A stretch of 64,000 nt of DNA from Bacteroidales bacterium (GTDB lineage: Bacteria > Bacteroidota > Bacteroidia > Bacteroidales > VadinHA17). Made by a program: the position numbers and the translations under genes. The stretch is from positions 37,140-101,139 of the forward strand of contig JALONR010000013.1 in the NCBI GenBank assembly GCA_025454815.1. The letters run 5' to 3'. How positions within the stretch are numbered: the first letter of the stretch is position 1; the number at the start of each line of letters is the position of its first letter. The notes under the pieces are model-generated. The model was not told the origin of the DNA. It ran no database searches and was given only the letters and a program-made list of their open reading frames with translations. This document shows positions 8,001 through 31,884 of this stretch, piece after piece.

Positions 8001-9152
8001 TTATAACCTTATTTGCAGGCTGTTGAGTCCTGCCGTTTTCCTGAACAGCTCAACCGGCTCCGTCAGAATGAACCGGCCGGCCACGATTTCCTCCCTGAGG
8101 ATTGAAGCAATCTCTCGCGCAACCTTTACACTTGACAGGGGTGCGGTCCTGATTTTCTTTCCACTGAGAGTTATCTCACCTGAGAAAAGCGATTGATAAT
8201 CAGTCCTTCCCAGTACACCGTTTGCAGGATTGCCGTAATCAATGACATTGGTCTCTATCTGGCTGTTCCGTATCATAACCCTGCGGGCCATATCCTCATC
8301 AAGTACGGGTATTGGTATTCCGACGCCTACAAATATTGAGACCCCGTATTTCTCAAAATAGGCTGCTTTTATAAACCTGGTGTCCATCTCTTTTGCATTG
8401 CCTATGAGGGCAAGGGTGGCTGAATTACCCACGGGCACTCCATGTTCATTGACAGGCTTGCCCGTGTTGAACTGTGTACCGTGCCATGCCACGTAACCTG
8501 TGGCGCCGCCGAAGAAGATGCGGGTTCCGATGCCGATGGTCCGCATCTCCGGATCATTCAAAAGGGGACTCAGCTCACCGGAGGTTGAGAATGTTGCATT
8601 GCCGAACGATGGCAGCAGGGTTCCCATGTAGGTGTATTTCATTTTTGATGTACTGTTAACCGCTACATTGTAGTTCTGGTATGCGTTTCGCGGATTGAAC
8701 ATTATCATCTCGTTGACCCTCTCCCTGTTGATCAGGGTCCTTATTTCGGTTCGAGGGTAACAGTCTGTTCCCTTGGCAGTTGCCTGCAGGAGGACATCCT
8801 TTCCGGCTATCAGTTCTTCAATGACATGTGCTCCCCCGTACTGGTCATGCGGCAGGGCTGTTTCCGTGGCACCTATATAGGCATCAACGGCTGCTATGCC
8901 TCCAAAGACGGGAACGTTGTTCAGCGTGAGTCTTTCCATGCGCATAGGCGGATCAGTATGACCGAAGTTGATGAACATGCCCGATGAGCACATTGGCCCG
9001 AAGGTACCCGTGGTGACCACGTCAACCTTTTCTGCGATCCTGGCGGGAGTAGATTCACGGCCCATGGCCGCTACCTGTTCTGCAGTCAGAACCACCGCCC
9101 TGCCGCTGCGGATCTTCTCATTGATCTCTTCTACGCTTTTCTTTTTACCCAT
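8001..9152 (-). CDS. Homocysteine biosynthesis protein, COG1900 / HcyBio (DUF39) family
   Basis: About 380 aa. N-terminus KSVEEINEKIRSGRAVVLTAEQV…, with a family-typical length and layout. Sits with NIL-ferredoxin and UPF0280 and behind a SAM riboswitch. Confidence 0.75.
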   Translation of the reverse strand: MGKKKSVEEINEKIRSGRAVVLTAEQVAAMGRESTPARIAEKVDVVTTGTFGPMCSSGMFINFGHTDPPMRMERLTLNNVPVFGGIAAVDAYIGATETALPHDQYGGAHVIEELIAGKDVLLQATAKGTDCYPRTEIRTLINRERVNEMIMFNPRNAYQNYNVAVNSTSKMKYTYMGTLLPSFGNATFSTSGELSPLLNDPEMRTIGIGTRIFFGGATGYVAWHGTQFNTGKPVNEHGVPVGNSATLALIGNAKEMDTRFIKAAYFEKYGVSIFVGVGIPIPVLDEDMARRVMIRNSQIETNVIDYGNPANGVLGRTDYQSLFSGEITLSGKKIRTAPLSSVKVAREIASILREEIVAGRFILTEPVELFRKTAGLNSLQIRL

Positions 9153-9249
9153 GACATATCAAATTAAAATATTCATAAACAAATACATACAGTGATTTCT
9201 CACACTGCTTAAAATCTTTGCTCTGGCTTGTGGCTGGTCGCAAAAATCT

Positions 9250-9360
9250 CAATTTATAATTCCCTTTTACGGGTAGGTCTTAGCACCTTCCGGAACCGTG
9301 GTTCCGTGGTTGCTAGAGGTTCGCAGAGCCTATTCTCTCCCCTCTTCTCTATAAACCAAA
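9250..9360 (-). promoter_or_regulatory. SAM-I (S-box) riboswitch in the leader of the homocysteine operon
   Basis: The minus strand reads UUAUAGAGAAGAGGGGAGAGAAUAGGCUCUGCGAACCUCUAGCAACCACGGAACCACGGUUCCGGAAGGUGCUAAGACCUACCCGUAAAAGGGAAUUAUAA. This carries the conserved S-box blocks (AGAG…GAGnGA…GGCyC…GAACC…AGCAACC…GGUGCUAA…CC) and P1 closure UUAUA/UAUAA. It lies ~100 nt upstream of the ATG at 9152. Confidence 0.85.
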
Positions 9361-9457: not shown

Positions 9458-10300
9458 ATGAAAAAGACAATGATTTTATTAATGGTGGCAGCAGCTGTTT
9501 TCACTTCCTGTTCTGACGGGGTGGTTCAGGATATTAAAGTCATGACTTTCAATATCAGGTTTGATAATCCCCGTGACAGCATAAATGCATGGCCAAACCG
9601 GGCAGCAATGGTTGCCGTTTTCATTGATGAACAGATACCTGACCTGTTTGGTATGCAGGAGGTTCTCTGGCACCAGTATGAATATCTTCGTTCTGAAGTG
9701 CCCGGGTTTGGCTCTGTGGCTGCAGGACGTGACGATGGTCTGAAGGGTGGAGAGGCCTGTCCGGTATTCTGGCGGCTCGGGAGGTTTGACCGGCTGGCTG
9801 AAGGAACTTTCTGGCTCTCGGCAACACCCGATGTGCCCGGATCAGTAGGATGGGGGGCCGCCCTGACGCGCATCACCACCTGGGTAAGGCTCTATGATAA
9901 GGTGGAGAAGGATACCATTCTGTTCTTCAATACCCACTTTGACCATATAAGTGACTCTGCAAGGGTGATGAGCTCCGGGGTACTCCTTGGCATGGTAAAG
10001 GAGATAGCCGGTGACAACCGGTTTGTAATCACGGGCGATTTCAACGCCCGGCCTGAGAGCCTGGCAATTGCGAGGATGAAGGAGGGTGACCTGGCGGTTG
10101 ATTCGTACCTGGTCTCGGAGACACCGCCGGCAGGGGTAAATTATACTTTCAACGGATGGAAGGATGAGCCGGGAGAGGGGAGGATTGACTACATCTTTGT
10201 CCGTAACGGCATGAAAGTCATGTCACATGAGACACACCGGGTGATTGAGGAGGGGGTGTTCATCTCTGACCACTGGCCGGTAACGGCTGTTGTAAAGTAG
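9458..10300 (+). CDS. Endonuclease/exonuclease/phosphatase (EEP) family lipoprotein
   Basis: Lipoprotein signal …AAAVFTSC. EEP motifs: MTFNIRFD, GMQEV, NTHFDH, GDFN, and SDHWPV at the C-terminus. Confidence 0.88.
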   Translation: MKKTMILLMVAAAVFTSCSDGVVQDIKVMTFNIRFDNPRDSINAWPNRAAMVAVFIDEQIPDLFGMQEVLWHQYEYLRSEVPGFGSVAAGRDDGLKGGEACPVFWRLGRFDRLAEGTFWLSATPDVPGSVGWGAALTRITTWVRLYDKVEKDTILFFNTHFDHISDSARVMSSGVLLGMVKEIAGDNRFVITGDFNARPESLAIARMKEGDLAVDSYLVSETPPAGVNYTFNGWKDEPGEGRIDYIFVRNGMKVMSHETHRVIEEGVFISDHWPVTAVVK

Positions 10301-18855: not shown

Positions 18856-19722
18856 TCACCTGGCATGATCAGAGATAAACTTTACGATTTTCCTGAATGA
18901 ATCGGTCATACTGGCTCCTGTCCATCCGTGACCCTCATCAGGGTAATACACGAGCTGGCTGACAACTCCGGCTGCTTCAAGCGCGGCAATAAGCCGGCTG
19001 GACTGTGACGGAGGCACCAGGGGATCGGCTCCTCCCTGCAGCGCTATTGTCGGAGGTGCGCCGGCCGTAATATATTCAGAAGGACTCGAGGACGCATACA
19101 ATGAAGGATTGTCTCCAAGCAACGTACCGGTTGCACCGTATAAAATCAACTGTTGTACGATGCCGTGATTCCAGAGCGCAACAAGATCAAATGGTCCAAA
19201 AAAGTCAACCACAGCCCTGACATGTCCGCCGGTGTCATTCTTGAAGGCATGCAGCATTGCAAGATGCCCTCCGGCACTGGCCCCCAGCAGCACCAGATCA
19301 TCGGAGACAATATACTCGTCAGCATTGCTTAGATAGTATTCAATGGCACTTTTTACATCATTTTCCTGTGTCGGGAACAGGTTAATACTGTTGTTCCGGG
19401 CAAGCCTGTAATTGATATTGAGAATTGCATATTCCGGCATCAGCTTCCTGAGAGTATCCACATACGTGTTCATCTCTGATTTGTCGCCTTCAACCCATCC
19501 GCCTCCGTGAATAAAGACAACTGTGACAGTGGTGGAGCGGTTCCTGCCTTCAGGCAGATAGATATCCATCCTCTGCTGGGCATTCTCTCCGTAAGAAACA
19601 TCCCTGATAATTCTTTCCTCTCCGCCGGCCGGGTCCTTTTCGCATGATAATTGAACAGATGTCGCGATTAATGCTGCTGTCAGCAGCAGTGTCCGGGTGG
19701 TTGTTTTTTTCAATCTCTTCAT
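18856..19722 (-). CDS. Alpha/beta hydrolase (esterase/lipase type) lipoprotein
   Basis: Signal …SVQLSC. Oxyanion motif VFIHGGGW. Nucleophile elbow GASAGGH. C-terminal DEGHGW. Confidence 0.88.
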   Translation of the reverse strand: MKRLKKTTTRTLLLTAALIATSVQLSCEKDPAGGEERIIRDVSYGENAQQRMDIYLPEGRNRSTTVTVVFIHGGGWVEGDKSEMNTYVDTLRKLMPEYAILNINYRLARNNSINLFPTQENDVKSAIEYYLSNADEYIVSDDLVLLGASAGGHLAMLHAFKNDTGGHVRAVVDFFGPFDLVALWNHGIVQQLILYGATGTLLGDNPSLYASSSPSEYITAGAPPTIALQGGADPLVPPSQSSRLIAALEAAGVVSQLVYYPDEGHGWTGASMTDSFRKIVKFISDHAR

Positions 19723-19856
19723 GACGGTTGCCTGATTAAAACTGTATGGCGGCTAAGATTTGCGCGTGCCTTGTATCCAGCATAACGGTGACATGTCACT
19801 GCTATTGTAATCAACAATTCAGTCCGGCTTTTGTTACCAGTTTATAGAATCTGCAT

Positions 19857-20735
19857 ATGAGAACACGACATACAGAAAAGATAATTTCACCGCCGCCGGT
19901 CCACTTTGTAGGTGACGGTTTCAGGGTGCACAATTTCATCCCGGGAGTATATCCGCTTACCATGGCAAGGATGGATCCCTTCATCCTCCTGGATTATAAT
20001 TCCAGGCATTTCTTTCCTCCGACCAACAAGCCCAGGGGAGTGGGAGTACATCCGCACCGGGGATTTGAAACGGTAAGCATTGCATACAGGGGCCGTATAG
20101 CACATCATGACAGCTTCGGCAACAGCGGTGTAATAGGAGAAGGGGATGTTCAGTGGATGACGGCTTCTTCAGGGCTTCTGCACAAGGAATACCATGAAAA
20201 GGAATTTGCCAGTACCGGGGGCGACTTCCATATGGTCCAGATCTGGGTTAACCTGCCGGCAAAGGATAAGATGTCTCCACCAAAATACCAGCCTATAACC
20301 AATGACCAGATGGGAAGGTACATATTGCCGGACGACAGTGGCATCATAGAAGTGATTGCAGGTTCCTACAATGATGTTAAAGGACCCGCATCAACCTTCA
20401 CACCCATGGCAATGATGAATGCAAGGCTGAAAGCCGGGGGAAAAGCGCTGTTTGCCTTTCCGCAGTCCTATAATACTGCGGCACTTGTGATTGAGGGGAG
20501 CATAAAAATTAACGGGACAGAAACAGCTCACACTGATCAGTTTGTGCTGTTCGGGAATGACGGAGAACAGTTTACCATTGAGGCGACTGAGAATTCCATT
20601 GTTCTTGTTCTCAGCGGCGAGCCGATCAGAGAACCTGTCGTGGCCCACGGTCCGTTCGTGATGAACACCCGGACCGAAATATACCAGGCTTTCGAGGATG
20701 TTGAAAACGGCCGGTTCGGCCACCTTGATGATTAA
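19857..20735 (+). CDS. Pirin family protein
   Basis: Bicupin of about 290 aa with GVGVHPHRGFETVSIAYRG and WMTASSGLLHKE motifs. Confidence 0.9.
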   Translation: MRTRHTEKIISPPPVHFVGDGFRVHNFIPGVYPLTMARMDPFILLDYNSRHFFPPTNKPRGVGVHPHRGFETVSIAYRGRIAHHDSFGNSGVIGEGDVQWMTASSGLLHKEYHEKEFASTGGDFHMVQIWVNLPAKDKMSPPKYQPITNDQMGRYILPDDSGIIEVIAGSYNDVKGPASTFTPMAMMNARLKAGGKALFAFPQSYNTAALVIEGSIKINGTETAHTDQFVLFGNDGEQFTIEATENSIVLVLSGEPIREPVVAHGPFVMNTRTEIYQAFEDVENGRFGHLDD

Positions 20736-20795
20736 TCCATCCTGACCGCCGGGAACAGATTCCGGGAGAAGGTCATTTGTACAAAAAGAATGATG

Positions 20796-20803
20796 TACAT
20801 TTG
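20796..20803 (+). promoter_or_regulatory. Bacteroidota -7 promoter box (TAnnTTTG) for crcB
   Basis: tacatttg lies 17 nt upstream of the crcB ATG. Confidence 0.45.
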
Positions 20804-20819
20804 CAGCACACTTTAAGCC

Positions 20820-21197
20820 ATGCTTAAAAACCTTCTTCTGATCGGCACAGGTGGTTTCATAGGCAGCATCGCACGCTATCTCGTCTCACAACTTAACCTT
20901 ACTGTCACTTTTCATTCAATACCTGTAGGAACACTTACAGTTAACGTGGCCGGCAGTTTCATTATAGGATTCCTGACCGGCATAGCTGAGAAAAGCATGA
21001 TCCTGACCCCTGAGTGGAGACTGTTCCTCATGGTCGGACTGTGCGGAGGATTCACAACTTTCTCGGCATTCGCCAATGAGAACCTCATGTTGATTCACAA
21101 CGGGCAGGCACTTTCGGTCATGCTATATACAGGACTGAGCATCTTTCCTGGCTTTCTGGCCGTCTACCTGGGATATGTAACCACTAACCTCCTCTGA
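20820..21197 (+). CDS. crcB: Fluoride ion channel CrcB/FluC
   Basis: 125 aa, four TM helices. GTGGFIGSIARY near the N-terminus and GLCGGFTTFSAF are typical of CrcB. Confidence 0.92.
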   Translation: MLKNLLLIGTGGFIGSIARYLVSQLNLTVTFHSIPVGTLTVNVAGSFIIGFLTGIAEKSMILTPEWRLFLMVGLCGGFTTFSAFANENLMLIHNGQALSVMLYTGLSIFPGFLAVYLGYVTTNLL

Positions 21198-21198
21198 A

Positions 21199-21300
21199 CA
21201 TGGAAAAATCATCCCATTCCGTTTTAAAGATCTATGCCAGCTCAACAGACAGGCTTGGCTCCGGATTACTATACGAGGCTGTTGTATCTCTCTTTAGGTG
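21199..21300 (+). pseudogene. N-terminal fragment (33 codons) of a DUF190/COG1993 gene
   Basis: MEKSSHSVLKIYASSTDRLGSGLLYEAVV… matches the DUF190 N-terminus (…LLRIY.GE.D…PLYEAIV). It stops at 21298-21300, where AT-rich DNA begins. Confidence 0.65.
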
Positions 21301-21878
21301 AGAACAGATCATTGGGATTATAATTCTTATCCCCTGGTTGCTTACGTTTCAATTTCCAGAAATGAATTGCAGAACCAAGCGTTTGTCCGGGATTATCAGC
21401 CAAAAAATCAAGGATATACCTGTTGTATTCGAACTGGGGAGCGATTTCTTTCTTATGTCCCTTGTTTCTTTTAAAAGCATAAATTCAATTCCATACATCA
21501 ATTGCATCAGCCAGAGTTTTACCTGCATTTGCTTTTGTCCAATTCATTAATTCGGTATTGAACATAGAATTGGGACCAATATGCAAAGTCATAAAGTCTC
21601 TTACATTCTCAGTGTTTTTGTAACTATCGGTAAGTTTTGTGCTCAGATTTAATGCAGCGTTTTTACAAGTGAAATTTGATGATTTAACTGGTTTTTGTAA
21701 TGTTGCTATTACCTTTCCTGTTGCCAGATAATGTTTAATTCTGACGGCTATTTCAATTTTACTTCCCGTAGCATTAATTCCATGGGTCCTGCAAAATGAT
21801 ATTAGTTCCCTTTTTAGCCAGTAACAGCTATGAAAATATTCAATTGAAATTGCATCGTCTGGTTCAGGTAGTTTAATA
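21269..21878 (-). pseudogene. SAP-like/DUF6434-type protein gene that lacks a start codon and has an in-frame TGA
   Basis: Minus-strand frame gives …KLPEPDDAISIEYFHSCYWLKRELISFCRTHGINATGSKIEIAVRIKHYLATGKV…MNWTKANAGKTLADAIDVWN*IYAFKRNKGHKKEIAPQFEYNRYILDFLADNPGQTLGSAIHFWKLKRKQPGDKNYNPNDL. The internal stop is at 21485-21487. No ATG lies upstream, and the 3' end runs into the DUF190 fragment. Confidence 0.5.
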
Positions 21879-21888
21879 CCCCGTACCT

Positions 21889-22809
21889 TTAATCCAAAGT
21901 TTGAACGGAGGCAAAAGTTCTTTTTATTCCTTTATGGTATTTTACTGCAGGGTAGCCAAATATAACAAATAAACCTTCCCGGCTTGCATATTTTATTCGA
22001 TGATCCTGCCTGAACTTACGGGCTTTGTTGCCATTTTGAATCAAAGGATGAACTGTACCCAACATGCATGTTCCCAATCCCAAAGATTCGGCTGCAATCA
22101 TGGCATAGGTTGCAGCTATTATCGGGTCAGCGGGATCGGTGTATGGAGAACCATAAAAATACATAGCCAAAGGAGCATTATAATTTACCATATCAATGCC
22201 TTCCTTCATTTTTGAGGTAAAAACATTAAATATTGGTTTAAGAAAATCCCTGAACATTTCGCTGTTGGCTTTCCCCAGAAAAGGCCGGTTTATTGCCAGA
22301 AACCAATCAGAAACAAACCACTTCATGCCGTTCAGATAATCACAAAAATCTTGTGAAAAAGCCCTTATGTTCATTCTGCCCCTGATTATCAGAATATTCA
22401 CATCAGAGGGAGGCACTCCCATGGGAGCTGTCTGAGCGGCATCAATTATTTTATCAACCAGATCATTTTCAACTTCTTTATCTATAAACTCACGAATGCT
22501 CCTCCTTCTTTGCAAAAGAGCCAGAAGTTGGCTAAAGTCAGCAGCTGATTCCTTTGCAGGAAGATCATAAAGCTGATTTGGAGAGAGCATTCGCCCGTTA
22601 ATTTCTACTGCTCCGGTCGGGCATATTGCCATGCAATGTCCGCAACCAACGCAACCAAACAAGGGGTTATCGCTGATTCTGGTTTTTTTATTTTCCATAA
22701 CCAGACTAAAATCTTTGCAAACGGATACACACAAACCGCAGTTGGTACATTTTTCGTTATAGAGCCTTATTTCAGCCTTTTGATTTGTTCTTGAGGTGGG
22801 TATTGCCAT
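21889..22809 (-). CDS. Nitroreductase-family protein with an N-terminal 2x[4Fe-4S] ferredoxin domain
   Basis: CTNCGLCVSVC and CVGCGHCMAICPTGA, followed by a nitroreductase fold (RRSIREF…, …GLGTCMLG). Confidence 0.8.
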   Translation of the reverse strand: MAIPTSRTNQKAEIRLYNEKCTNCGLCVSVCKDFSLVMENKKTRISDNPLFGCVGCGHCMAICPTGAVEINGRMLSPNQLYDLPAKESAADFSQLLALLQRRRSIREFIDKEVENDLVDKIIDAAQTAPMGVPPSDVNILIIRGRMNIRAFSQDFCDYLNGMKWFVSDWFLAINRPFLGKANSEMFRDFLKPIFNVFTSKMKEGIDMVNYNAPLAMYFYGSPYTDPADPIIAATYAMIAAESLGLGTCMLGTVHPLIQNGNKARKFRQDHRIKYASREGLFVIFGYPAVKYHKGIKRTFASVQTLD

Positions 22810-22819
22810 GATTACATTT

Positions 22820-23287
22820 TTATAAAGACCTGTTTTTTCTGTGCTGTTTTAGTAGTTTATTATCTGGTTCTATGGTTTCCGTTTTTGGAAGAAACAACTC
22901 CCGCATCCCTAACCCACCCCGAATAGCAAAAATGACATACAGAATGGTAAACAAACCGTCAATTATCCCTGTGAACCAGAAAGTAGAAGGGAAATCAGCA
23001 ACAAACAACATATATATGTATAGTTGAACAACATAGAACAATCTGCCGATAATGAGGCAACCTACATTAAAAGCATACCGCCTGATATTGAATGCAGATA
23101 GAAACTGCAGCCAGGCAAAACATAGAAAAAAAGATCCCAGGAAAACTGCGAAAAAGGGATCAATTGCTGGATTATCAATAATTCGCCCGGTACCTATTAG
23201 AAAAAAATAGAGAATAGCTGCAACGGTGTCCCATATTCCACTTACAAAGAAGGTAATAGCAAGGGGTATTAAAGATTTGTTTTTCAT
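22820..23287 (-). CDS. Hypothetical integral membrane protein (about 4 TM)
   Basis: Hydrophobic segments LIPLAITFFVSGIW…, FFAVFLGSFFLCFAWLQFL, VGCLIIGRLFYVVQLYIYMLF and FTGIIDGLFTILYVIFAI. No family recognised. Confidence 0.6.
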   Translation of the reverse strand: MKNKSLIPLAITFFVSGIWDTVAAILYFFLIGTGRIIDNPAIDPFFAVFLGSFFLCFAWLQFLSAFNIRRYAFNVGCLIIGRLFYVVQLYIYMLFVADFPSTFWFTGIIDGLFTILYVIFAIRGGLGMRELFLPKTETIEPDNKLLKQHRKNRSL

Positions 23288-23288
23288 A

Positions 23289-24410
23289 TTAATTTTTTTT
23301 GTCTGCACGAATAATACTTCCTTTTAATACATCAGTTTGCAAAATGTCTATTGTCTTTTCAGGTTCTTCGAATATTGGGCTGTGAGCCGATTTTTCAAAT
23401 GTGTAAAATCCTTTTACAGGTGCTTTTATCTTTTCAAAATAGTCCTTTGCCAAAACGTAAGAAACTGTGTAATCATAAATTCCGTGAAAAAAATAGACCG
23501 GAATTTTAAGTTCAGGTACTTGTTTAGCTAAATCAGTTGCGAGGATCGTATTCCAGAGTGGGTGTACCCCTGCCCTGGCTTTGGCACGCCACAGATTAAA
23601 CTTCTCATTAATTGTATAGTCTCTGCATTTAAGCGAGGGTATAAAAATTCCGGTAATAATAGAACTCATTTCACGGGTTGTCCCAATACCAAGGGTGTGC
23701 ATTGCCTCATCCCTTATCGTCAGGTACTGATAGGGAGTTCCACTGGAACGGATTACCGGAGCCGCCTCAAGTTTTCGAAGCATTTTTTTATCGCCCCTTG
23801 ACTTGTATTGGGTAACCATATACTGGTATGCAAGCCTTTCGGATTCAAGTTGGTCGGTCATCTGAGCCACTCCAATGTAAGCGTGGTATAATTCTGGCGC
23901 CTGAGCAGCTACATACATGCCAATAAAGGTTCCTCCTGATCGTCCCATCAGGTAGATCTTGTCCTGCACAAAGCGCTTACGCAGGTAATTTGTCACCTCT
24001 TTCGTATCTGAAATCATTTGTTCCAGTGTTATTGACTCTGCAGGGGTGTTGGCGTTGTATGAAAGTCCAGCCCACCGTTGGTCCCACCAGACCACAGTGA
24101 AGCTATCTTCAAGACCAGTAGGGTATTTCTTTGTGAGAAAATAATCGGGGATTCCACCATGAAGGTACAGTAGTACAGGATTAGCAGAGTCTTTGCTCTG
24201 AATAAACATCCCATGCTTCATTCCATTTATCTCGACATATGTTTTTTCAGAGATACTCCGAGCCAGAAGATTTCCGTTCTTTTCCAGGAAAGGTTTAGGT
24301 TTTCCGGGACTGTATATAATTAATACAAATGCAATAATCATTAAGAATATCGCCACTGATGAAATCAAAACAAGTATCATACGTGAAATTGTTTTTATAA
24401 AATTGACCAT
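23289..24410 (-). CDS. Alpha/beta hydrolase (proline-iminopeptidase-like) with an N-terminal TM anchor
   Basis: TM helix MILVLISSVAIFLMIIAFVLII. LYLHGG oxyanion region. Nucleophile elbow GRSGG. C-terminal …SAHSP. Confidence 0.8.
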   Translation of the reverse strand: MVNFIKTISRMILVLISSVAIFLMIIAFVLIIYSPGKPKPFLEKNGNLLARSISEKTYVEINGMKHGMFIQSKDSANPVLLYLHGGIPDYFLTKKYPTGLEDSFTVVWWDQRWAGLSYNANTPAESITLEQMISDTKEVTNYLRKRFVQDKIYLMGRSGGTFIGMYVAAQAPELYHAYIGVAQMTDQLESERLAYQYMVTQYKSRGDKKMLRKLEAAPVIRSSGTPYQYLTIRDEAMHTLGIGTTREMSSIITGIFIPSLKCRDYTINEKFNLWRAKARAGVHPLWNTILATDLAKQVPELKIPVYFFHGIYDYTVSYVLAKDYFEKIKAPVKGFYTFEKSAHSPIFEEPEKTIDILQTDVLKGSIIRADKKN

Positions 24411-24518
24411 GTGATTCTTTATCTTTTAGGTTGGTTGTTAATCTTTGTTTAGCACTTCACTGTCAGGGTAGGACGAACTCACCGCTTTTGCAACCCGGTT
24501 GACAGGCAAAGTATTTTC

Positions 24519-25292
24519 TTATATTTTTCGTCCTATAAAAAAAACATATCCATAATACTCTTTATACTTTAGGTAAAGTTTTGCTTCTCTTCTCTGATTT
24601 GCAATTAATCCTTCAACAGTTATATTTCCCACATACTTTTGTAAAAATGTTTCCTGGGCAGCAACTTGTGGAGCATAAAAATTGTCTGTCCAACAATTTT
24701 CCGGCAAAATAAATGTCGCTACCGGAATGTATCCTGCTTCCTGAAGCAGCCTCACTTTATTAGGGATTGTATCAATCTCAGGATAAGCATCTGTCCAAAA
24801 TTCTTCAATTTCCCGGGGTCGTTCGGCTGTAAACCACGAAACTTCAGTAACAGCAATATAACCACCCTTTTTTAAGAATTTATGCCATTCTTGCAGCCCT
24901 CTTTTAAAACCAATGTTATAAATTGCACCTTCTGACCAAATAAGGTCTAACCCTTCATTATTGAACAGAAGGTTATCCATGGATCCTACGATCCCCTTCA
25001 CTCTGTTTTGTAATTTATGCTTTAAAGCATTTTCATTCAACTTTTGGATAAAGCGCGGGTATAAATCTATGCCCACAACCTTACCTTTGGAGTTATGAGC
25101 AAGAGTTAATGTTTGACCTCCTGTTCCACATCCAATATCTGCTATTTGTGAGTCCTCTTTAAGATTATCAATAAAACTTAATGCTTTGATTGTTACCTCT
25201 TTACTACCAGGTCCTTGTCTTTCAATTTCAAGGAAATATTCACAAATTAAGTCAATATCAAATTCGTGAATGGATTTGTTTTGTTTCTCCAT
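24519..25292 (-). CDS. Class I SAM-dependent methyltransferase
   Basis: Motif [14 protein letters not shown], with post-I VVGIDL. Confidence 0.85.
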
Positions 25293-25339
25293 GTTTGTAT
25301 GTCTTTATTGATTTGTTATAAGTATTTTGCCTAACCGGT

Positions 25340-25756
25340 TCAAATCTTGTATAAATGAACCGTAATTGTCTTTGTTGTGTCGTTAACTATAACTTTAAGC
25401 TTATCAAAGCTGCCTGGTGCACTTTTCCCGGCATAGTTGCTGAAACCAAATGGCTCTCTGGGGATTCCGAGAAAATTGGAATCAAGTTCGCCATTGCCAT
25501 TTTTATCCTGATACATTGAAATTACGTACCCGCCTGCAGGTAAAGTGATGGGCATACTTAAAGTTTCTGCAATTGAGTTTGCAATAATTGAATAATAAAT
25601 TTTTCTCCCGTCATATGACTTTTCGCTATTAAAAAACGAAATATGGAGTTTGCCTCCGTCTTTTTTAATTCCGGTAATCTCAAGAGTCAGGCCGTTTTGT
25701 GCAAAAGCAATTCCGGAACTAAGAAATATTGCTATTCCAACGATTAACTTCTTCAT
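25340..25756 (-). CDS. DUF2141 domain secreted protein
   Basis: Signal MKKLIVGIAIFLSSGIAFA. LHISFFNSEKSY…, QDKNGNGELDSNFLGIPREPFGFSN is the DUF2141 signature. The ATG at 25756 is preferred to 25792. Confidence 0.75.
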   Translation of the reverse strand: MKKLIVGIAIFLSSGIAFAQNGLTLEITGIKKDGGKLHISFFNSEKSYDGRKIYYSIIANSIAETLSMPITLPAGGYVISMYQDKNGNGELDSNFLGIPREPFGFSNYAGKSAPGSFDKLKVIVNDTTKTITVHLYKI

Positions 25757-25769
25757 TTTTGCTATTCTT

Positions 25770-26567
25770 TTATAGGGATTTTCTTTTACCATGCCTTACT
25801 GCTACCTTAATGGCGTCGAGCCAGTTATAATGCAAATTGATAGCCCTTTCCCTGCAATTAATTTCACACAGCCTGCAAAGGGTGCAATCCAGCTCTTTGA
25901 ATGGTACAGCTTTATTTTTTACAGACTCAATGACACTTAAAGGGCAAATATTTACACATTTTCCACAGCCCTTGCAGACACTTTGATTTATCGTAACAAT
26001 GTCACCTTTCAGAATTACCTGAGTTTCATTTATACTCAATGAATAGGTATTTACAAAACCGTCTTTAACCTTATTCTTGGTTTTAATCTGTTCATAAAAG
26101 TCAGGCATACAATACTGAGGCAAGCAATTCCTTAAAAATTTGGCTGCCTTTTTTATGTCTTTTTCGTCAGGTTTGCCAACATTTCCACCGCCGATAATTA
26201 CCCATGGGCCTGTTTCATCATACCCTCTCACCGAAAATTCACCAGCTATCTTTTTTCCTTTTTCTAATAACAGTTTTTTTATGGGATCATGGTAGTTTCC
26301 CAATACCGGAGCACCACGGCTGGAGAAGATAAATATATGCTGCTCTGTTTTATCAAGGTTCTTCACAACTTCAAAAATAGCCGGGTGATGGCTTCCAAAA
26401 TAAATTCCTGAACCGAAACCAACTGCTTTGTATTGACTTAAATCGGTTTTTAGAGCCTCCTGTGCTCTTATAAATTCGCAACCCAGTGTCCGGGCCATTA
26501 TGCAGGCTAATTTTTCTGTGTTCCTGTTGTAAATTGACTCATATACAACTATGCAATCGTTATTCAT
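25770..26567 (-). CDS. Flavodoxin-like domain fused to a 2x[4Fe-4S] ferredoxin (EFR1-like)
   Basis: N-terminal flavodoxin-like fold (IVVYESIYNRNTEKLA…GFGSGIYFGSHH). C-terminal CKGCGKCVNICP and CTLCRLCEINC. Confidence 0.75.
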   Translation of the reverse strand: MNNDCIVVYESIYNRNTEKLACIMARTLGCEFIRAQEALKTDLSQYKAVGFGSGIYFGSHHPAIFEVVKNLDKTEQHIFIFSSRGAPVLGNYHDPIKKLLLEKGKKIAGEFSVRGYDETGPWVIIGGGNVGKPDEKDIKKAAKFLRNCLPQYCMPDFYEQIKTKNKVKDGFVNTYSLSINETQVILKGDIVTINQSVCKGCGKCVNICPLSVIESVKNKAVPFKELDCTLCRLCEINCRERAINLHYNWLDAIKVAVRHGKRKSL

Positions 26568-26755
26568 TTTATCTGTTTTTACTTTCGGAACCCGGTTAAA
26601 AGGAATTTCTTCCGAAATAGTTAGTTGTCTGTCATTTAAAAATATTCAACAAATCTAACTACTCAGTTCAGGCAAGAAAAGTAAAAGTGGATGAGGATGT
26701 TAATTCAGAGTATGAGAGTCGGTTTCTGATAGCTGGATGTGTAAAGGATGCCAGT

Positions 26756-26911
26756 TTATTTTAACAAATCCTTAATTAGGTTGATGAATGAATCCAGTGT
26801 GGATTTTTCAATTGTCAGGGCAGGATACAGTCTAAAAACCTCAGAATTGGGACGCTTTGCAACAATGAAACCCTGCTTCAGAAGTTGCACATAAACCTCC
26901 CGGGCATTTTT
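26756..26911 (-). pseudogene. 3' fragment (51 codons) of a class-III aminotransferase-like gene
   Basis: The minus frame reads KNAREVYVQLLKQGFIVAKRPNSEVFRLYPALTIEKSTLDSFINLIKDLLK*. This resembles the C-terminus of ArgD/GabT-type enzymes (…IRL.PPL.I…ID…). An in-frame stop lies immediately upstream and there is no N-terminal body. Confidence 0.5.
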
Positions 26912-26944
26912 TTATTTGAATGGCAATCATTAAGCCCCTCCCTC

Positions 26945-27121
26945 TTACCTCTAAAACTTCCGGTGGTGATCGAACTGATAGATACAGAAGAAAAAATCAG
27001 GGAATTCTATGACACGATAGCTCCTGAACTGCAGGCACTTCCCAAAGGCTGCCTCGTAACAGTGTCACCCGTTGAGGTTATTCTTCACAAGAGCGGAACA
27101 AAGAGGGATAAACTAATCTGA
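26945..27121 (+). pseudogene. C-terminal fragment of the DUF190/COG1993 gene
   Basis: …LPLKLPVVIELIDTEEKIREFYDTIAPELQALPKGCLVTVSPVEVILHKSG matches the DUF190 C-terminus (LPVVIEIVD.EEKI..F…..G L.T…VEV). No plausible own start; the upstream residues are unrelated. Confidence 0.65.
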
Positions 27122-27363
27122 GACTGAACCCGGGTGGAGTTTCAGGGTGGAATCAGGGGAAAATACAGGTCTGTTGACGATGAACCTGATGAAATTTGCT
27201 GCCGTCTGCCGCCATTCTTTAAAGAGATTCTGAAAACAGCAAGCGTCACAATGTGCATGTATTCAGTCGATTGTAATTCATATCAGGTGCCCCGATCACC
27301 ATTCACCAAAAAATATTTTGAAAAATTATCCAAAAAAATTTGGAAGTAAATGTTATTTATATC

Positions 27364-27371
27364 TAACTTTG
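27364..27371 (+). promoter_or_regulatory. Bacteroidota -7 promoter box (TAnnTTTG), embedded in a small palindrome
   Basis: taactttg lies 28 nt upstream of the ATG at 27399, within tctaac-tttgt-gttaga (6-bp inverted repeat). Confidence 0.4.
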
Positions 27372-27398
27372 TGTTAGAAATAATTAACAACATCAATC

Positions 27399-27797
27399 AT
27401 GAAAAGAGGAGTTATTGCTTTACTGGTATCAGCCACAGTACTGGCTACAACGGCATTTTGGTTCTTTGGCATGGAGAAATCCGTAAATGCCCATGATATT
27501 ATGAGTTTCGCGGTCATCATCATCCTGGTGGGTTTCGGTATCTGGTTTGCCATAAGAAGATTCTCATCGGCCTATAAAGGCGAGCCCCAGGAGGATGAGC
27601 TCTCGAAAAGGATCGTGCAGAAGACGGCAGCATGGTCATATTACATTTCGCTTTACATGTGGGTCTTCATGATCTGGCTGAAAGACCGTGTAACAATGGA
27701 TACCGAGCAGGTGCTTGGCGCCGGGATACTCTCAATGGCAGTGATCTTTATGCTGTGTTTTATCTTTCACAAGCTAAGGGGAATACGCCATGAATAA
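27399..27797 (+). CDS. Small integral membrane protein (4 TM), partner of the XRE regulator
   Basis: Four hydrophobic helices. Overlaps the downstream XRE gene by 8 nt. Confidence 0.65.
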
Positions 27798-27981
27798 CCG
27801 TATAAGGGAGTACAGGGCCCGTCATGATCTCACCCAGGATGATCTTGCAAAAAGGGTAAATGTGAGAAGGGAGACCATTGTCTTCCTTGAAAAAAACAAG
27901 TACAATCCATCGCTCAAGCTGGCGCATGACATCGCCGTTGTTTTCGGTGTGCCGATAGAAGAGATATTCATTTTTGACTGA
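27790..27981 (+). CDS. Short XRE-family helix-turn-helix transcriptional regulator
   Basis: 63 aa: [56 protein letters not shown]. This is a canonical HTH_XRE (YozG-like) regulator. Confidence 0.9.
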
Positions 27982-28104
27982 AATCGTCTGCAGACCGGCT
28001 GCGATCCGCTTACGGATTATTGCTATAGGCCATGATTTTCAGTCAATGGCAACAAGTGAATATCTTCAGGATCTTAAGTGTCAGCTTTTGAGGTAAGGAT
28101 TACG

Positions 28105-28137
28105 TTGTGCCGGTGACCATTGTGGCCGCCGGCACAA
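28105..28137. terminator. GC-rich hairpin between convergent genes
   Basis: ttgtgccgg (28105-28113) pairs with ccggcacaa (28129-28137), a 9-bp stem with a 15-nt loop. There is no clear U-tract on either strand. Confidence 0.3.
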
Positions 28138-28183
28138 ACTGACAGGATATTTATGATAATTTGGTTCTGATTAAGTATAAATC

Positions 28184-30073
28184 CTATTTCCTCGGCAACC
28201 GCGAAACATCCAGTTTGGTATTCGGCGTGCCCATATCCCTGGAATCCTTAATTGTCAGGATAATATCATTGAAGTCGTGATCACAGCTGCTCTCCCTGAC
28301 CCTGATATCTTCGAACGTAAGTACGATGTCATCGCAACCGCTGCTTACGAAAAGGGTTGATTGCTGGGCCTGGCCACTGTTGAAAATCCTGTCTGTATAT
28401 TGTGTATAGACACCATCGGTCGTGAGGCCGTTTTTCCATCCCTGGGCAACGATGTAAAAGCCTATTACCGTTCCTGCCGGGAAACTGCCGTCACCCAGTT
28501 GTACGCGGTCACCAAAGTCCAGGCCACCGCCTTCACCGACTTTCGAAACGTTGGGAAATACTATATGCTTTTCCAGATCATCGATGCTTTGAGGCGGGTT
28601 GCCGGCAGGATAGGAATAATAACCGAATGTATTTCTCCATCCGGCTCCTTCGTCGATGAATGAAACGAAGACTGGTGTTTCCTCCCTGACATATATATTC
28701 AGGTGGGCAGTATCACTGAACAGGTCGGCATGGACATTCCTCACATCCACCCTTTCAGGGAACAATTCCGAAATATTTGCCATCAATGTTACACAGGGTT
28801 CGGTAGGCTCAACATTGTCAGGTACCCCTTCATCAATATTTATGGCAAGTATTTTCAGACCTCCGAGTCCCGTAGCAACAAAAATCACACTGTCTTTTGA
28901 TTCCACAAAATTTGCAGACTGGGATTCACCGAAGGTCATAGCCCCCAACATCCACAGGCTGTCATTTTTTTCTGCAATAAGTCCGCCAACATATATGCCG
29001 GACTCACCATTTCCTATCAACACAAGGTCACCATTGAGAGATACACTATTGGTTACATGGTTCTCATCGAGAGCGCCGGAAGGTGTTGCAGGTTTTGGCA
29101 GACTTTGTTTAATGCTCCCGTCGAGATTGAGAACAGAGAGTCCTCCTTCATTCAATGCAGCAAAAATATACTCATCTGAAACCGCAATTTCAGATTTGGA
29201 TTCCGGGATGTTCGCTCCACCGACATGATATGTTCCGGCAGGAGAGGCATCAGACAATCCGAATACATTCACCTGCCCTTCCTGACCTTGCAACACGTAA
29301 AGATGATCTGAGTTTGCATCAACTGAACGGGCATCAGAGATTTCCGTTATACCTGCTTTTGCAAAGCCGGCATCAAAAACGGTAAGCCCCCCGGTGGAAC
29401 CGCTGGTAGCAAATATATGACCGGCTGCTACCTTAATATCAGTTCCGGCAAAGGAAGGAATATCAATGATAGTATCTACTTTTTCAAAGGCCATTGCTGC
29501 ATCGAGTGATATTACTTCCATAAATGCCGGCGATACAAACCCCAAGTCTTCAAAATCTCCGGTTGCCCCGACCACATAAATCTTTCCATCCGCATAGTCC
29601 ACAGCACTTACGTCTGTATTCGGAAGTATGGCGCTTGAAATAATCACCGGGTTCTTCAGATCAGAGACATCGAATATTTCTATACCTCCCAGCCATTCAG
29701 GCCCGCGTGTGTTATAAGTAACAAAAGCGTAGTTATCCTTAATGGTGACATGGGTTGCCTGCAGCGTCTTATTCCCGTAAACCGGAGGATCAACTTCGGC
29801 TTTTAATTTAAAAGCATAGTTCTTTGTAAGGTCTATTTCCGGAAAACCTGCACCGCTCTTCAGGAGTGAGGAAGTTTCCTTATCCAAAATGGGTACTGTT
29901 TCATTCTTATACGTTATCCTTGATGCCAGTTGGGCAGGATTGTTATTGATAAGTAAATTCCCAATTTCAATGTAGAGATCCTCAGGATTATCTGCTGGAG
30001 GAGTTTCTTTCCGGCAACTGAACAGCGTAAAAACAAGAAATAGTATTACAGTAACAAAACAAACATTTTTCAT
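28184..30073 (-). CDS. LVIVD-repeat beta-propeller lipoprotein with a C-terminal DUF4114 domain
   Basis: Signal …LFSC. Repeated …YAFVTY…GGIEIFDVSD, HIFATSGSTGGLTVFD, YIFAALNEGGLSVLNL and VIFVATGLGGLKILAI (LVIVD-type blades). The C-terminus FGYYSY…GFYIV…LTFEDIR…CDHDFNDIILTI is DUF4114-like. Confidence 0.75.
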   Translation of the reverse strand: MKNVCFVTVILFLVFTLFSCRKETPPADNPEDLYIEIGNLLINNNPAQLASRITYKNETVPILDKETSSLLKSGAGFPEIDLTKNYAFKLKAEVDPPVYGNKTLQATHVTIKDNYAFVTYNTRGPEWLGGIEIFDVSDLKNPVIISSAILPNTDVSAVDYADGKIYVVGATGDFEDLGFVSPAFMEVISLDAAMAFEKVDTIIDIPSFAGTDIKVAAGHIFATSGSTGGLTVFDAGFAKAGITEISDARSVDANSDHLYVLQGQEGQVNVFGLSDASPAGTYHVGGANIPESKSEIAVSDEYIFAALNEGGLSVLNLDGSIKQSLPKPATPSGALDENHVTNSVSLNGDLVLIGNGESGIYVGGLIAEKNDSLWMLGAMTFGESQSANFVESKDSVIFVATGLGGLKILAINIDEGVPDNVEPTEPCVTLMANISELFPERVDVRNVHADLFSDTAHLNIYVREETPVFVSFIDEGAGWRNTFGYYSYPAGNPPQSIDDLEKHIVFPNVSKVGEGGGLDFGDRVQLGDGSFPAGTVIGFYIVAQGWKNGLTTDGVYTQYTDRIFNSGQAQQSTLFVSSGCDDIVLTFEDIRVRESSCDHDFNDIILTIKDSRDMGTPNTKLDVSRLPRK

Positions 30074-30222
30074 AGCTCATCATTAAAGTTCTACTCATTG
30101 AGTATTATACCAGTACGGGAAAAAGAACATTGTCCTTTCCGGTATCTTTTACTTTTTACTATTTTTTAATGTAAAGGTTACATTCAGGCGCTGCGGTTTT
30201 GACAAATCAGACATTTTTTAGC

Positions 30223-30261
30223 ATGAATAGCCGTATAGAGGAGTACAGGGCCGGCATTTAA
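30223..30261 (+). pseudogene. 12-codon remnant of a second XRE regulator gene
   Basis: atgaatagccgtatagaggagtacagggcc matches 27 of 30 nt of the start of the XRE gene at 27790 (MNSRIEEYRA vs [10 protein letters not shown]). It then diverges and stops. Confidence 0.5.
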
Positions 30262-30345
30262 TCTTCTTTCTATTGTATCTATCCTGTATAATGCATAAAT
30301 TTATGGTGCATTTCCTCCTTTAGTGTGCAACATAATTACTGAGTC

Positions 30346-31884
30346 ATGCTGGTCAAGACCTTCAGCGCTGCCGTATCGGGCATTGATGCTGTTCCGGTAA
30401 CCATTGAGGTTGATGTAAACCGTGGTGTTCGTTACATGCTTGTCGGGTTGCCTGATGCTGCCGTAAAGGAAAGCCAGCAGCGGATCGAGTCGGCCCTCCG
30501 TGCTGCGGGGCTCCACTGGCCCGGCAGGCAGGTGATTATCAACATGGCACCTGCTGACATCCGGAAGGAGGGTTCATCCTATGACCTGCCCCTGGCTGTT
30601 GGTATCCTTGTAGCATCGGAGATGGTAAGCGGAGACAGGCTTGACGGCCTGTTGCTTACCGGCGAGCTGTCACTTGACGGAGCGGTAAGGCCTGTACGCG
30701 GAGCCCTACCCATGGCCCTGCGTGCCCGTGAGGAGGGCTTCCGTGGTATGATGGTGCCTGCATTGAATGCTCCCGAGGCTGCGGTGGTCGAGGGTATAGA
30801 TATTTATGGCGTGAACAGCCTGACCGAGGTAATGGCATACCTCAGGGGCGAGTGGTCGCCTGCACCGCTCAGGGTAGACCTGAAGGAATTATTCAGCCGC
30901 GAGGGAAATATCTATGACACCGACTTTGCTGATGTCAAGGGCCAGGAGAATGTCAAGCGGGCTCTTGAAGTCGCCGTTGCAGGTTCACATAATGCAATCA
31001 TGATCGGACCCCCTGGTTCTGGAAAGACCATGCTGGCCCGCCGTCTTCCCGGGATACTGCCCCCTCTCACACCGGAGGAGGCGCTGGAGACAACCAGGAT
31101 ACATTCTGTTGCCGGCAAGACAGAGAATCACATCCCTCTGATGACACGCCGGCCGTTCCGCAGTCCTCATCACACAAGTTCTGACATTGCCCTGATTGGC
31201 GGCGGTCCCGTTCCACAGCCAGGTGAGATAAGCCTTGCACACAACGGAATTCTCTTCCTTGATGAGCTGCCGGAATTTAAAAGAAGCGTCCTCGAAGTGC
31301 TGCGGCAGCCCCTGGAAGACAGGATCATAACCATCGCACGTGCACGCATGAGCTGCAATTTCCCTGCTTCTGTGATGCTTATAGCCTCCATGAATCCATG
31401 TCCGTGCGGATATCATAATCACCCCTCAAAGGAATGTACCTGTGCCCCGGGGATGGTACAGAGATATCTCAGCCGTATTTCCGGGCCCCTTCTTGACAGG
31501 ATAGACATCCACATCGAGGTGGTTCCGGCTGACTATGAAAAACTCGCAGTGACATCCTCCCCTGAGAGTTCGCTTGTTATCCGTCAGCGTGTTGTGGCGG
31601 CACGCAACATCCAGTCGGTGCGCTTCGAAGGCAGTGACACCATTCACTCCAATGCACAGATGACCCCGGCAATGATACGCCGGCACTGCCATCTTGACGA
31701 TGCGGGAGGGAGACTCCTCAGGGCTGCAATGGATAAACGAGGGCTCTCTGCCCGCGCCTATGACAGAATCCTCAAGGTAGCCCGAACCATTGCAGACCTT
31801 GACAATTCTGATGTTATCAGGCCAGACCATCTGTCAGAGGCCATAAACTACAGAAACCTCGACCGGGAAGGATGGGCAGGATGA
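30346..31884 (+). CDS. comM: YifB/ComM-family Mg-chelatase-like AAA+ ATPase
   Basis: N-terminal Lon-protease-like domain, Walker [21 protein letters not shown], and a Cys cluster MNPCPCGY…C.C. Confidence 0.92.

Follow-up and report, generated by a model that had tools for sequence, protein, structure and literature searches.

What has come between the two ends of a gene that in related genomes follows the fluoride exporter gene crcB, and by what route did it arrive there? The question is raised by a 64,000-nt stretch of DNA from a Bacteroidales bacterium (GenBank assembly GCA_025454815.1, contig JALONR010000013.1, positions 37,140 to 101,139; hereafter, the window), in which a reading of the sequence alone had suggested that a foreign, AT-rich island splits the DUF190 gene that partners crcB. 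This original prediction was borne out by an empty site in related genomes, by a shift in composition and by donor-type loci found elsewhere. We consider it likely, with a probability of roughly 0.78, that a 5,666-bp chromosomal segment from a lower-GC member of the Bacteroidota was integrated into DUF190 by illegitimate recombination in a hotspot of horizontal gene transfer (HGT), deleting 107 bp of the target.

The split DUF190 gene and its empty site

Full membership in the DUF190 family was taken to mean a single open reading frame (ORF) over the 97-position PF02641 profile above the gathering score of 23.4 bits. No ORF of the window spans the whole profile, and DUF190 is here a disrupted member: two ORFs 5.6 kb apart, scoring 15.8 bits (N-terminal fragment) and 31.2 bits (C-terminal fragment, within ORF 26885-27121), match complementary parts of the one model, as the original prediction had anticipated, and profile positions 28-59 are gone. 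The N-terminal fragment begins 2 nt past the crcB stop codon, in the usual place of DUF190 downstream of crcB. The 33 codons initially assigned to it do match the family, but only the first 29 of this ORF (21200-21301) are DUF190, the last four codons and the stop (21299-21301) being island DNA. Similarly, the central gap is real, but alignment to the closest relative, locus L004, sets the loss at 36 codons rather than ~30. Compared with L004, the N-terminal fragment is 93% identical to DUF190 residues 1-29, the C-terminal fragment shows 87.9% nucleotide and 91% amino acid identity, and CrcB is 95% identical at the amino acid level. Because the lost segment is the core of the PII-like fold, the DUF190 gene is dead; judging by its sequence, it is certainly a pseudogene, and crcB stays intact. 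No second DUF190 copy was found in the window.

Relatives of the locus were gathered by scanning one genome per species with the pirin protein encoded upstream of crcB, which yielded ~25 loci from Bacteroidales metagenome-assembled genomes (MAGs) labelled Rikenella, Rikenellaceae or Bacteroidales. The order pirin-crcB-DUF190 is present in L004, L007, L008, L009, L014, L015, L016, L018, L024, L030, L044, L060 and L080, in all of which the two DUF190 parts lie ~108 nt apart within one ORF; in L010, DUF190 directly follows crcB and the sequence stops inside the gene. At 119-120 aa, the intact DUF190 proteins of these relatives match profile positions 2-97 with 100-107 bits. None of the related pirin-crcB-DUF190 loci contains island genes, and the empty site whose search in relatives had been suggested is thus found with crcB-DUF190 intact. 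The nucleotide alignment to L004 stops at window position 21287 and restarts at 26954, which defines an island at 21288-26953 (5,666 bp) replacing 107 bp, or 36 codons, of DUF190; the window has nothing that corresponds to L004 positions 1674-1780 (107 nt, 36 codons: YRAREAGISGATVYRGVMGYGLSSHIHTSKFWELTE). Homology to the donor-type locus L149 starts at 26951, within 3 nt of the point where host homology resumes, so that both breakpoints are resolved to 1-3 bases. The split originally placed at ~21285 and ~26915, with an island of ~5.6 kb, is thereby refined to 21287/21288 and 26953/26954. Within the same species, exact look-ups with crcB, pirin and the junction ORF recovered no empty-site allele, every contig of the species carrying the island.

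The composition of the island sets it apart from its surroundings. Relative to 236 equal-length windows from the rest of the 64 kb, its GC content of 0.380 (control mean 0.503, standard deviation 0.014) corresponds to z = -9.0, and its tetranucleotide L1 distance of 0.457 is 2.4 times the largest control value (0.189), upholding the visual impression that the insert is AT-richer than its flanks. A 500-nt GC profile falls from ~0.47-0.50 to 0.34-0.41 between ~21250 and 27000, and GC content at third codon positions is 0.27-0.39 in island genes versus 0.43-0.56 in host genes. The GC content of the island is that of the collinear locus L153 (0.381), described below.

Both junctions recur in other assemblies, located by exact-protein look-ups, and misassembly, which had been flagged as a possible refutation, is hence excluded. 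Contig Ga0392394_0000401 of JGI 3300037461 is 100% identical to the window over 15.5 kb and spans both junctions. From Logan SRR12684589, a 10.2-kb contig with 100% identity spans the left junction, and a second contig of 1.6 kb, 100% identical over 26599-28198, spans the right one. Finally, a 1.7-kb contig of JGI 3300037408 spans the left junction with 99.77% identity; its four single-nucleotide polymorphisms (SNPs) lie on both sides of that junction, at 19904, 20809 and 21090 in host DNA and at 21406 in the island.

Donor-type loci and the route of insertion

Relatives of the island hydrolase and of the EFR1-type protein number in the hundreds, none exceeding 89% and 80% identity, respectively (best non-self matches, 76-89% and ~80%), and many matches to the one protein share their contig with a match to the other. 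Locus L153 (JGI 3300033568) is collinear with the island in five blocks of 77-84% nucleotide identity, its order being EFR1, DUF2141, methyltransferase, (2 extra ORFs), hydrolase, (GNAT), membrane protein, (423-aa ORF), ferredoxin-nitroreductase, (84-aa ORF) and DUF6434; the island is more compact. Locus L149 (JGI 3300038679) reads His_kinase, LytTR response regulator, full-length aminotransferase, EFR1, DUF2141 and, further on, hydrolase, and L152, L085, L084 and L150 are variants of the same arrays. By gene order and sequence similarity, then, the island represents a contiguous, compacted stretch of an accessory array that is characteristic of lower-GC Bacteroidota chromosomes. Its breakpoints lie within the aminotransferase gene and at the end of DUF6434, and it has retained the conserved leader of the array but not the regulators. 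The donor would have been an unsampled Bacteroidota member of lower GC content (~38%), and the host a Rikenellaceae-like member of the Bacteroidales with ~50% GC. The suggested search for a donor thus turned up collinear donor-type loci but not the donor itself. A scan of metagenome contigs with the EFR1-type protein gave a 43% relative and ferredoxin-domain noise, and did not recover the self contig either.

L153, L150, L085 and L084 carry small, heterogeneous accessory genes (beta-lactamase-family, GNAT, outer membrane protein beta-barrel, leucine-rich repeat, DUF2141, hydrolases, methyltransferases) in long arrays on one strand, interspersed with repeated His_kinase-LytTR pairs and with a gene content that is turning over quickly. 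The aminotransferase gene upstream of the operon in L085 (8822-9440) has decayed independently: internally deleted, it survives as an N-terminal and a C-terminal piece, and only the first codons of the EFR1 gene are left in this locus, indicating that the same array genes are also being lost in other lineages.

The original remark that no integrase, transposase, tRNA or flanking direct repeat is visible held up on systematic searching. Pfam and NCBIfam place all island ORFs in non-mobility families, and no integrase, recombinase or transposase gene is present in the island or in ~10 kb on either side; the left flank encodes ABC transporters, an RND-type efflux system, TetR, a hydrolase and pirin, and the right flank DUF2178, a helix-turn-helix (HTH) protein, DUF4114, a comM-like Mg-chelatase, DUF6272 and thioredoxin-like proteins. 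Since the genes and remnants listed in Table 1 account for the whole island, there is no room in it for an integrase or transposase. The 64-kb window contains no tRNA or tmRNA, and no terminal direct or inverted repeats pair the island ends, only short chance-level matches being present. Searches of plasmid and phage DNA with the whole island returned single-gene similarity only, at 64-73% (Clostridium estertheticum hydrolases and, for the methyltransferase, one Phocaeicola record and a 4-kb 'phage' record), and no vector. There is no target-site duplication, the target showing the 107-bp deletion instead.

Known classes of mobile DNA were considered in this light. An insertion sequence or composite transposon was rejected, there being no transposase, terminal inverted repeats or target duplication. 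An integrative genomic island, an integrative and conjugative element (ICE) or a prophage would fit the deviant composition and the absence from relatives, but the recombinase gene, tRNA target and att repeats are missing. The resemblance to classical genomic islands and integrative elements accordingly extends to a discrete block of deviant GC that is absent from relatives and carries accessory genes, whereas integrase, tRNA target and flanking direct repeats are lacking and the 5.7-kb size is that of an 'islet'. A 9-nt sequence at the host edge of the left junction, CTGTTGTAT (21279-21287), recurs at 21420-21428 in the island, away from the junction; we judged this coincidental, since these island bases are codons of the conserved DUF6434 motif QFEYNR. 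The island copy is followed by TCGAACTG, which also occurs just past the right junction (26960-26977).

Illegitimate recombination, rather than a mobile element, is the most likely route because the junctions lack a recombinase gene, att-like or terminal repeats, a tRNA and a target duplication. A linear fragment of a foreign chromosome would have entered the host, whether by transformation, conjugation, vesicles or transduction, and been placed in DUF190 by end-joining or microhomology-type recombination at both of its ends; integration would have deleted the 107 bp and inactivated the gene, and the resulting allele could then spread among strains via homologous recombination in the conserved flanks. 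There are descriptions of illegitimate and homology-facilitated illegitimate recombination of foreign linear DNA in naturally transformable bacteria and in E. coli conjugation (PMC3240628). Our case resembles these in the absence of a site-specific recombinase, in breakpoints that lie inside genes and in the loss of recipient DNA, and differs in that no homologous anchor was detected between donor-type and host sequence.

Alternatively, a larger mobile element (ICE, transposon or prophage) might have hit DUF190, with later deletions removing its mobility genes, part of the cargo and the 107 bp of target. Such a two-step origin, which we regard as unlikely, would account for the decayed genes at both island edges (a frameshifted aminotransferase, and a DUF6434 gene that has a nonsense codon and lacks its start), for a target that lost 107 bp without duplication and for the compactness of the island relative to L153. 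Yet it has left no trace of a mobility gene, repeat or att site, plasmid or phage relatives are lacking, and every donor-type locus has the array in an ordinary chromosomal context, among TonB receptors and two-component systems; moreover, the independent decay of the L085 aminotransferase means that edge decay is not specific to this event. It is more improbable still that the island came from an older low-GC acquired region of the same genome, moved or copied into DUF190 by illegitimate recombination. Such arrays are multi-copy in other Bacteroidota (L150 has two His_kinase-LytTR arrays within 20 kb), and the inspected portion of this genome is only 64 kb, but GC content and tetranucleotide usage of the island lie far outside those of the rest of the window, exact look-ups of island-linked proteins gave only contigs with the same context, and the records for the clusters of the island hydrolase and EFR1 proteins (P0001, P0121) comprise one or two contigs only.

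A chimera, in which the assembler joined DNA of another organism to the host, might be suspected from the metagenome-type source of the window and the abrupt change of composition at both junctions. This is highly improbable given that the contig re-enters the same DUF190 gene 107 bp further on, that the left junction is present in three other assemblies, one from a diverged strain with SNPs on either side, and that the right junction is present in two others made with different assemblers. The bare pattern of presence and absence would also fit an island that is ancestral at the site and was lost by the relatives. Loss would, however, have had to put back, in ~15 lineages, 107 bp of conserved DUF190 coding sequence in the correct frame, and the composition of the island is foreign; the intact DUF190 genes of the relatives refute this scenario.

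Several points nevertheless weigh against integration of a foreign chromosomal fragment by illegitimate recombination as we propose it. The donor was not found and the best protein matches are 76-89% identical; the donor proxies L149 and L153 themselves are only 76-84% identical to the island. That no mobility genes are present today is no proof that none were there when the DNA was inserted. The junctions are confirmed at the level of contigs, by assemblies that may come from one project or ecosystem. Lastly, the 64 kb of host sequence examined leaves room for an intragenomic source.

Cargo of the island and its leader

As originally counted, the island holds six intact genes on one strand, all of them on the minus strand (Table 1). 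The assertion that genes are truncated at both inner edges holds on the right only. There, the aminotransferase remnant comprises the last 65 of 386 codons, as determined by tblastn and blastn against the full-length L149 gene, and its reading frame shifts by -1 at an A7 run (26907-26913), where A8 would restore QIKKNAREVY. At the left edge, the gene for the SAP and DUF6434 domains is essentially full length compared with homologues of 194-209 aa, its C-terminus (…NDLFSPKE) coinciding with the junction, but it has been inactivated: the ATG start of its relatives is ATT here (21875-21877), and an in-frame TGA (21485-21487) replaces a conserved Arg.

Table 1. Features of the crcB-DUF190 locus, of the inserted island and of leader counterparts elsewhere (window coordinates unless a locus is named)
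Feature	Position	Strand	Basis
crcB, fluoride exporter, 125 aa, intact	20820..21197	+	PF02537 E 2e-29; TIGR00494 97 bits (cut-off 80.45)
DUF190 5' fragment, 29 codons	21200..21287	+	PF02641 profile positions 2-27
Inserted island, GC 38.0%	21288..26953	.	L004 alignment and composition
SAP_new25 + DUF6434 pseudogene, left island edge	21288..21877	-	PF20026 E 1e-25, PF18953 E 3e-17
Ferredoxin (2x[4Fe-4S])-nitroreductase fusion, 306 aa	21889..22809	-	PF00881, Fer4 families
Small multi-pass membrane protein, ~143-162 aa	22820..23308	-	no Pfam or NCBIfam match
Alpha/beta hydrolase (S33-like), 373 aa	23289..24410	-	PF12146, PF00561
Class I S-adenosylmethionine (SAM)-dependent methyltransferase, 257 aa	24519..25292	-	PF13847, PF13649, PF08241; collinear in L153
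DUF2141 protein, 138-150 aa depending on start	25340..25792	-	PF09912 E 5e-23
EFR1-family ferredoxin (flavodoxin-like domain + 2x[4Fe-4S]), 265 aa, first operon gene	25770..26567	-	Fer4, Flavodoxin_5
Candidate operon leader/promoter, 188 nt	26568..26755	-	alignment with L149, L152, L085, L084
3' remnant of class-III aminotransferase, residues ~321-386 of 386, right island edge	26756..26953	-	PF00202 positions 338-402 of 403
DUF190 3' fragment, 55 codons + stop, without own start codon	26954..27121	+	PF02641 positions 60-97
Leader counterparts	L149 3691-3879; L152 3294-3502; L085 ~9160-9345; L084 ~9870-10000

The EFR1-family assignment rests on a match to NF038196 (E 3e-17, 63.6 bits) that is below the 75-bit cut-off. 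The ferredoxin-nitroreductase gene is 84% identical at the nucleotide level to L153 8562-9483. The small membrane protein is 81-84% identical in amino acid sequence to the product of the gene right after the hydrolase in L084, L085 and L086 and, on this evidence, is a conserved partner of the hydrolase. PADLOC found no anti-phage defence system in the island; its mad2 methyltransferase domain model matches the island methyltransferase (E 7e-21), which reflects generic similarity among class I SAM-dependent methyltransferases, and the other five proteins gave nothing. DVU_1556- and ArsM-type NCBIfam models also match the methyltransferase, all of these matches, that of mad2 included, being below their cut-offs.

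Upstream of the EFR1 gene, the leader is 86-90% identical to the DNA preceding the matching operons in L149, L152, L085 and L084, and is more conserved than the adjacent coding DNA. In these four loci it lies shortly downstream of a His_kinase(PF06580)-LytTR pair; L153 has neither the pair upstream nor the leader. The leader contains two 10-nt direct repeats, ACTCTCATAC-N11-ATCCTCATCC, at 26689-26719, with starts 21 nt apart, a pattern that matches once in the 64-kb window versus 0 expected. Some 30 nt downstream of the repeats is a TAGATTTG box, followed in the 5' untranslated region by an inverted repeat, or hairpin, TTTCGGAA/TTCCGAAA. A 21-nt spacing is the usual geometry of LytTR operators, as at AgrA- and AlgR-type sites, and the TAGATTTG box resembles the Bacteroidetes -7 box TAnnTTTG. 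The leader is, from these features, a candidate LytTR operator and promoter. A scan for sigma-70 promoters and terminators returned counts not above those in shuffled sequence, its consensus being ill-suited to Bacteroidota. Rfam matched no known RNA in the leader (19600-27500, E <= 1), and a consensus fold of three sequences, with a covariation term of -0.33 kcal/mol, gave no sign of a structured RNA. Neither the island nor the rest of the 64-kb window contains a His_kinase or LytTR gene, and since the leader was kept without a regulator, expression of the cargo may depend on cross-talk with a LytTR protein of the host.

It is tempting, if improbable, to go further and view the cargo not as a random fragment but as a self-contained, portable LytTR-responsive module for stress response or detoxification, combining a conserved leader with a paired-repeat operator and redox, methyl-transfer and hydrolase genes, that would be usable by any Bacteroidota host with a compatible LytTR regulator and whose fixation in DUF190 was perhaps selected. 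Were this so, selection in DUF190 could have acted, for instance, via a CrcB channel freed from a PII-like DUF190 gate; alternatively, convergent transcription from the island might tune crcB.

Hotspot, timing and consequences for crcB

Among related MAGs, at least five different sets of genes occur between pirin and the gene for the comM-like Mg-chelatase (window 19857-31884). This interval is empty in L006, L011, L012 and L020, holds only DUF2178-HTH in L017 and only crcB-DUF190 in L015 and L016, and combines the two modules in L008, L009 and L018. Both modules are joined by DUF4114 in L014 and in the window, to which the latter adds the island. An interval bounded by core genes and variable in accessory content is what defines an HGT hotspot, and in this lineage the pirin-comM interval appears to behave as a hotspot of gene turnover and HGT without mobile elements, a status that rests on ~20 MAG loci rather than on a formal pan-genome reconstruction. 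Many HGT hotspots carry no recognisable mobile genetic elements (Oliveira, Touchon, Cury & Rocha 2017, PMC5635113). Variable content between two conserved genes, compositionally foreign gains and the lack of a mobile element are common to those hotspots and to the present one, but the DNA here landed inside the accessory gene DUF190, with a 107-bp deletion, and not between genes.

Codon differences from L004 (synonymous/nonsynonymous) amount to 6/2 in the N-terminal and 11/5 in the C-terminal DUF190 fragment, resembling those in crcB (43/6) and pirin (98/33), and the fragments contain no extra stop codons or frameshifts relative to L004. This mostly synonymous divergence, together with the unameliorated composition of the island, suggests that the insertion took place well after the split from the L004 lineage. 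It predates, on the other hand, the 0.2% divergence between strains, because the SNP-bearing strain of JGI 3300037408 shares it.

DUF190 (COG1993, UPF0166) has a PII/GlnB-like fold, known from the structures of TM0021 (PDB 1O51) and PH1503 (PDB 2DCL), and the intact DUF190 proteins of the relatives also give a weak P-II match. The family is tied to fluoride biology via FlJ/flJ in fluorinase clusters, and its members have been proposed to be channel modulators; the literature examined contains no demonstrated function. The start of DUF190 lies 5-9 nt past crcB in ~15 related genomes, an arrangement from which the window departs with a split gene that has lost profile positions 28-59 and with a crcB that lacks an upstream fluoride riboswitch (Rfam; whole window at gathering thresholds, 19600-27500 at E <= 1). 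The expectation that the fluoride-response pair is probably impaired is only half borne out: DUF190 is dead, but crcB is intact, no fluoride riboswitch precedes it and the crcB-DUF190 module is dispensable in the lineage, as several relatives lack it entirely. Loss of DUF190 may have been neutral. The island genes are oriented convergently to crcB, and the scan detected no terminator-like site past the remnant of DUF6434, an arrangement in which antisense read-through from the island into crcB is possible.

Overall, the event is real but ordinary HGT, namely an acquired islet free of mobile elements that disrupts an accessory gene, and no new system or mechanism is in evidence. Its value is that of a clean natural case of gene gain without mobile-element machinery, in which the breakpoints are unusually well resolved, many relatives supply the empty site and a donor-type locus can be recognised, and hence of a case study for illegitimate integration in uncultivated Bacteroidales. 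It also provides a natural DUF190 knockout beside an intact crcB, which could help to probe the role of the PII-like protein in fluoride export, and draws attention to the long same-strand accessory arrays, with their conserved leader, behind His_kinase-LytTR pairs in Bacteroidota.

Minor observations concern the sequence to the right of the island and the left part of the window. An 18-nt palindrome, CTGAGACTGAACCCGGGT / ACCCGGGTGGAGTTTCAG, at 27118-27145 overlaps the DUF190 stop codon and may formerly have terminated the crcB-DUF190 unit. A 71-aa ORF (27134-27349, plus strand), which JGI called as a gene, sits between the remnant of DUF190 and DUF2178; it matches no family, tblastn finds it in none of the related loci, and it may be spurious. 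Far from the island, a SAM riboswitch (RF00162; 71 bits, E 1e-14) is located at 9251-9357 on the minus strand, upstream of a 383-aa ORF at 8001-9152.

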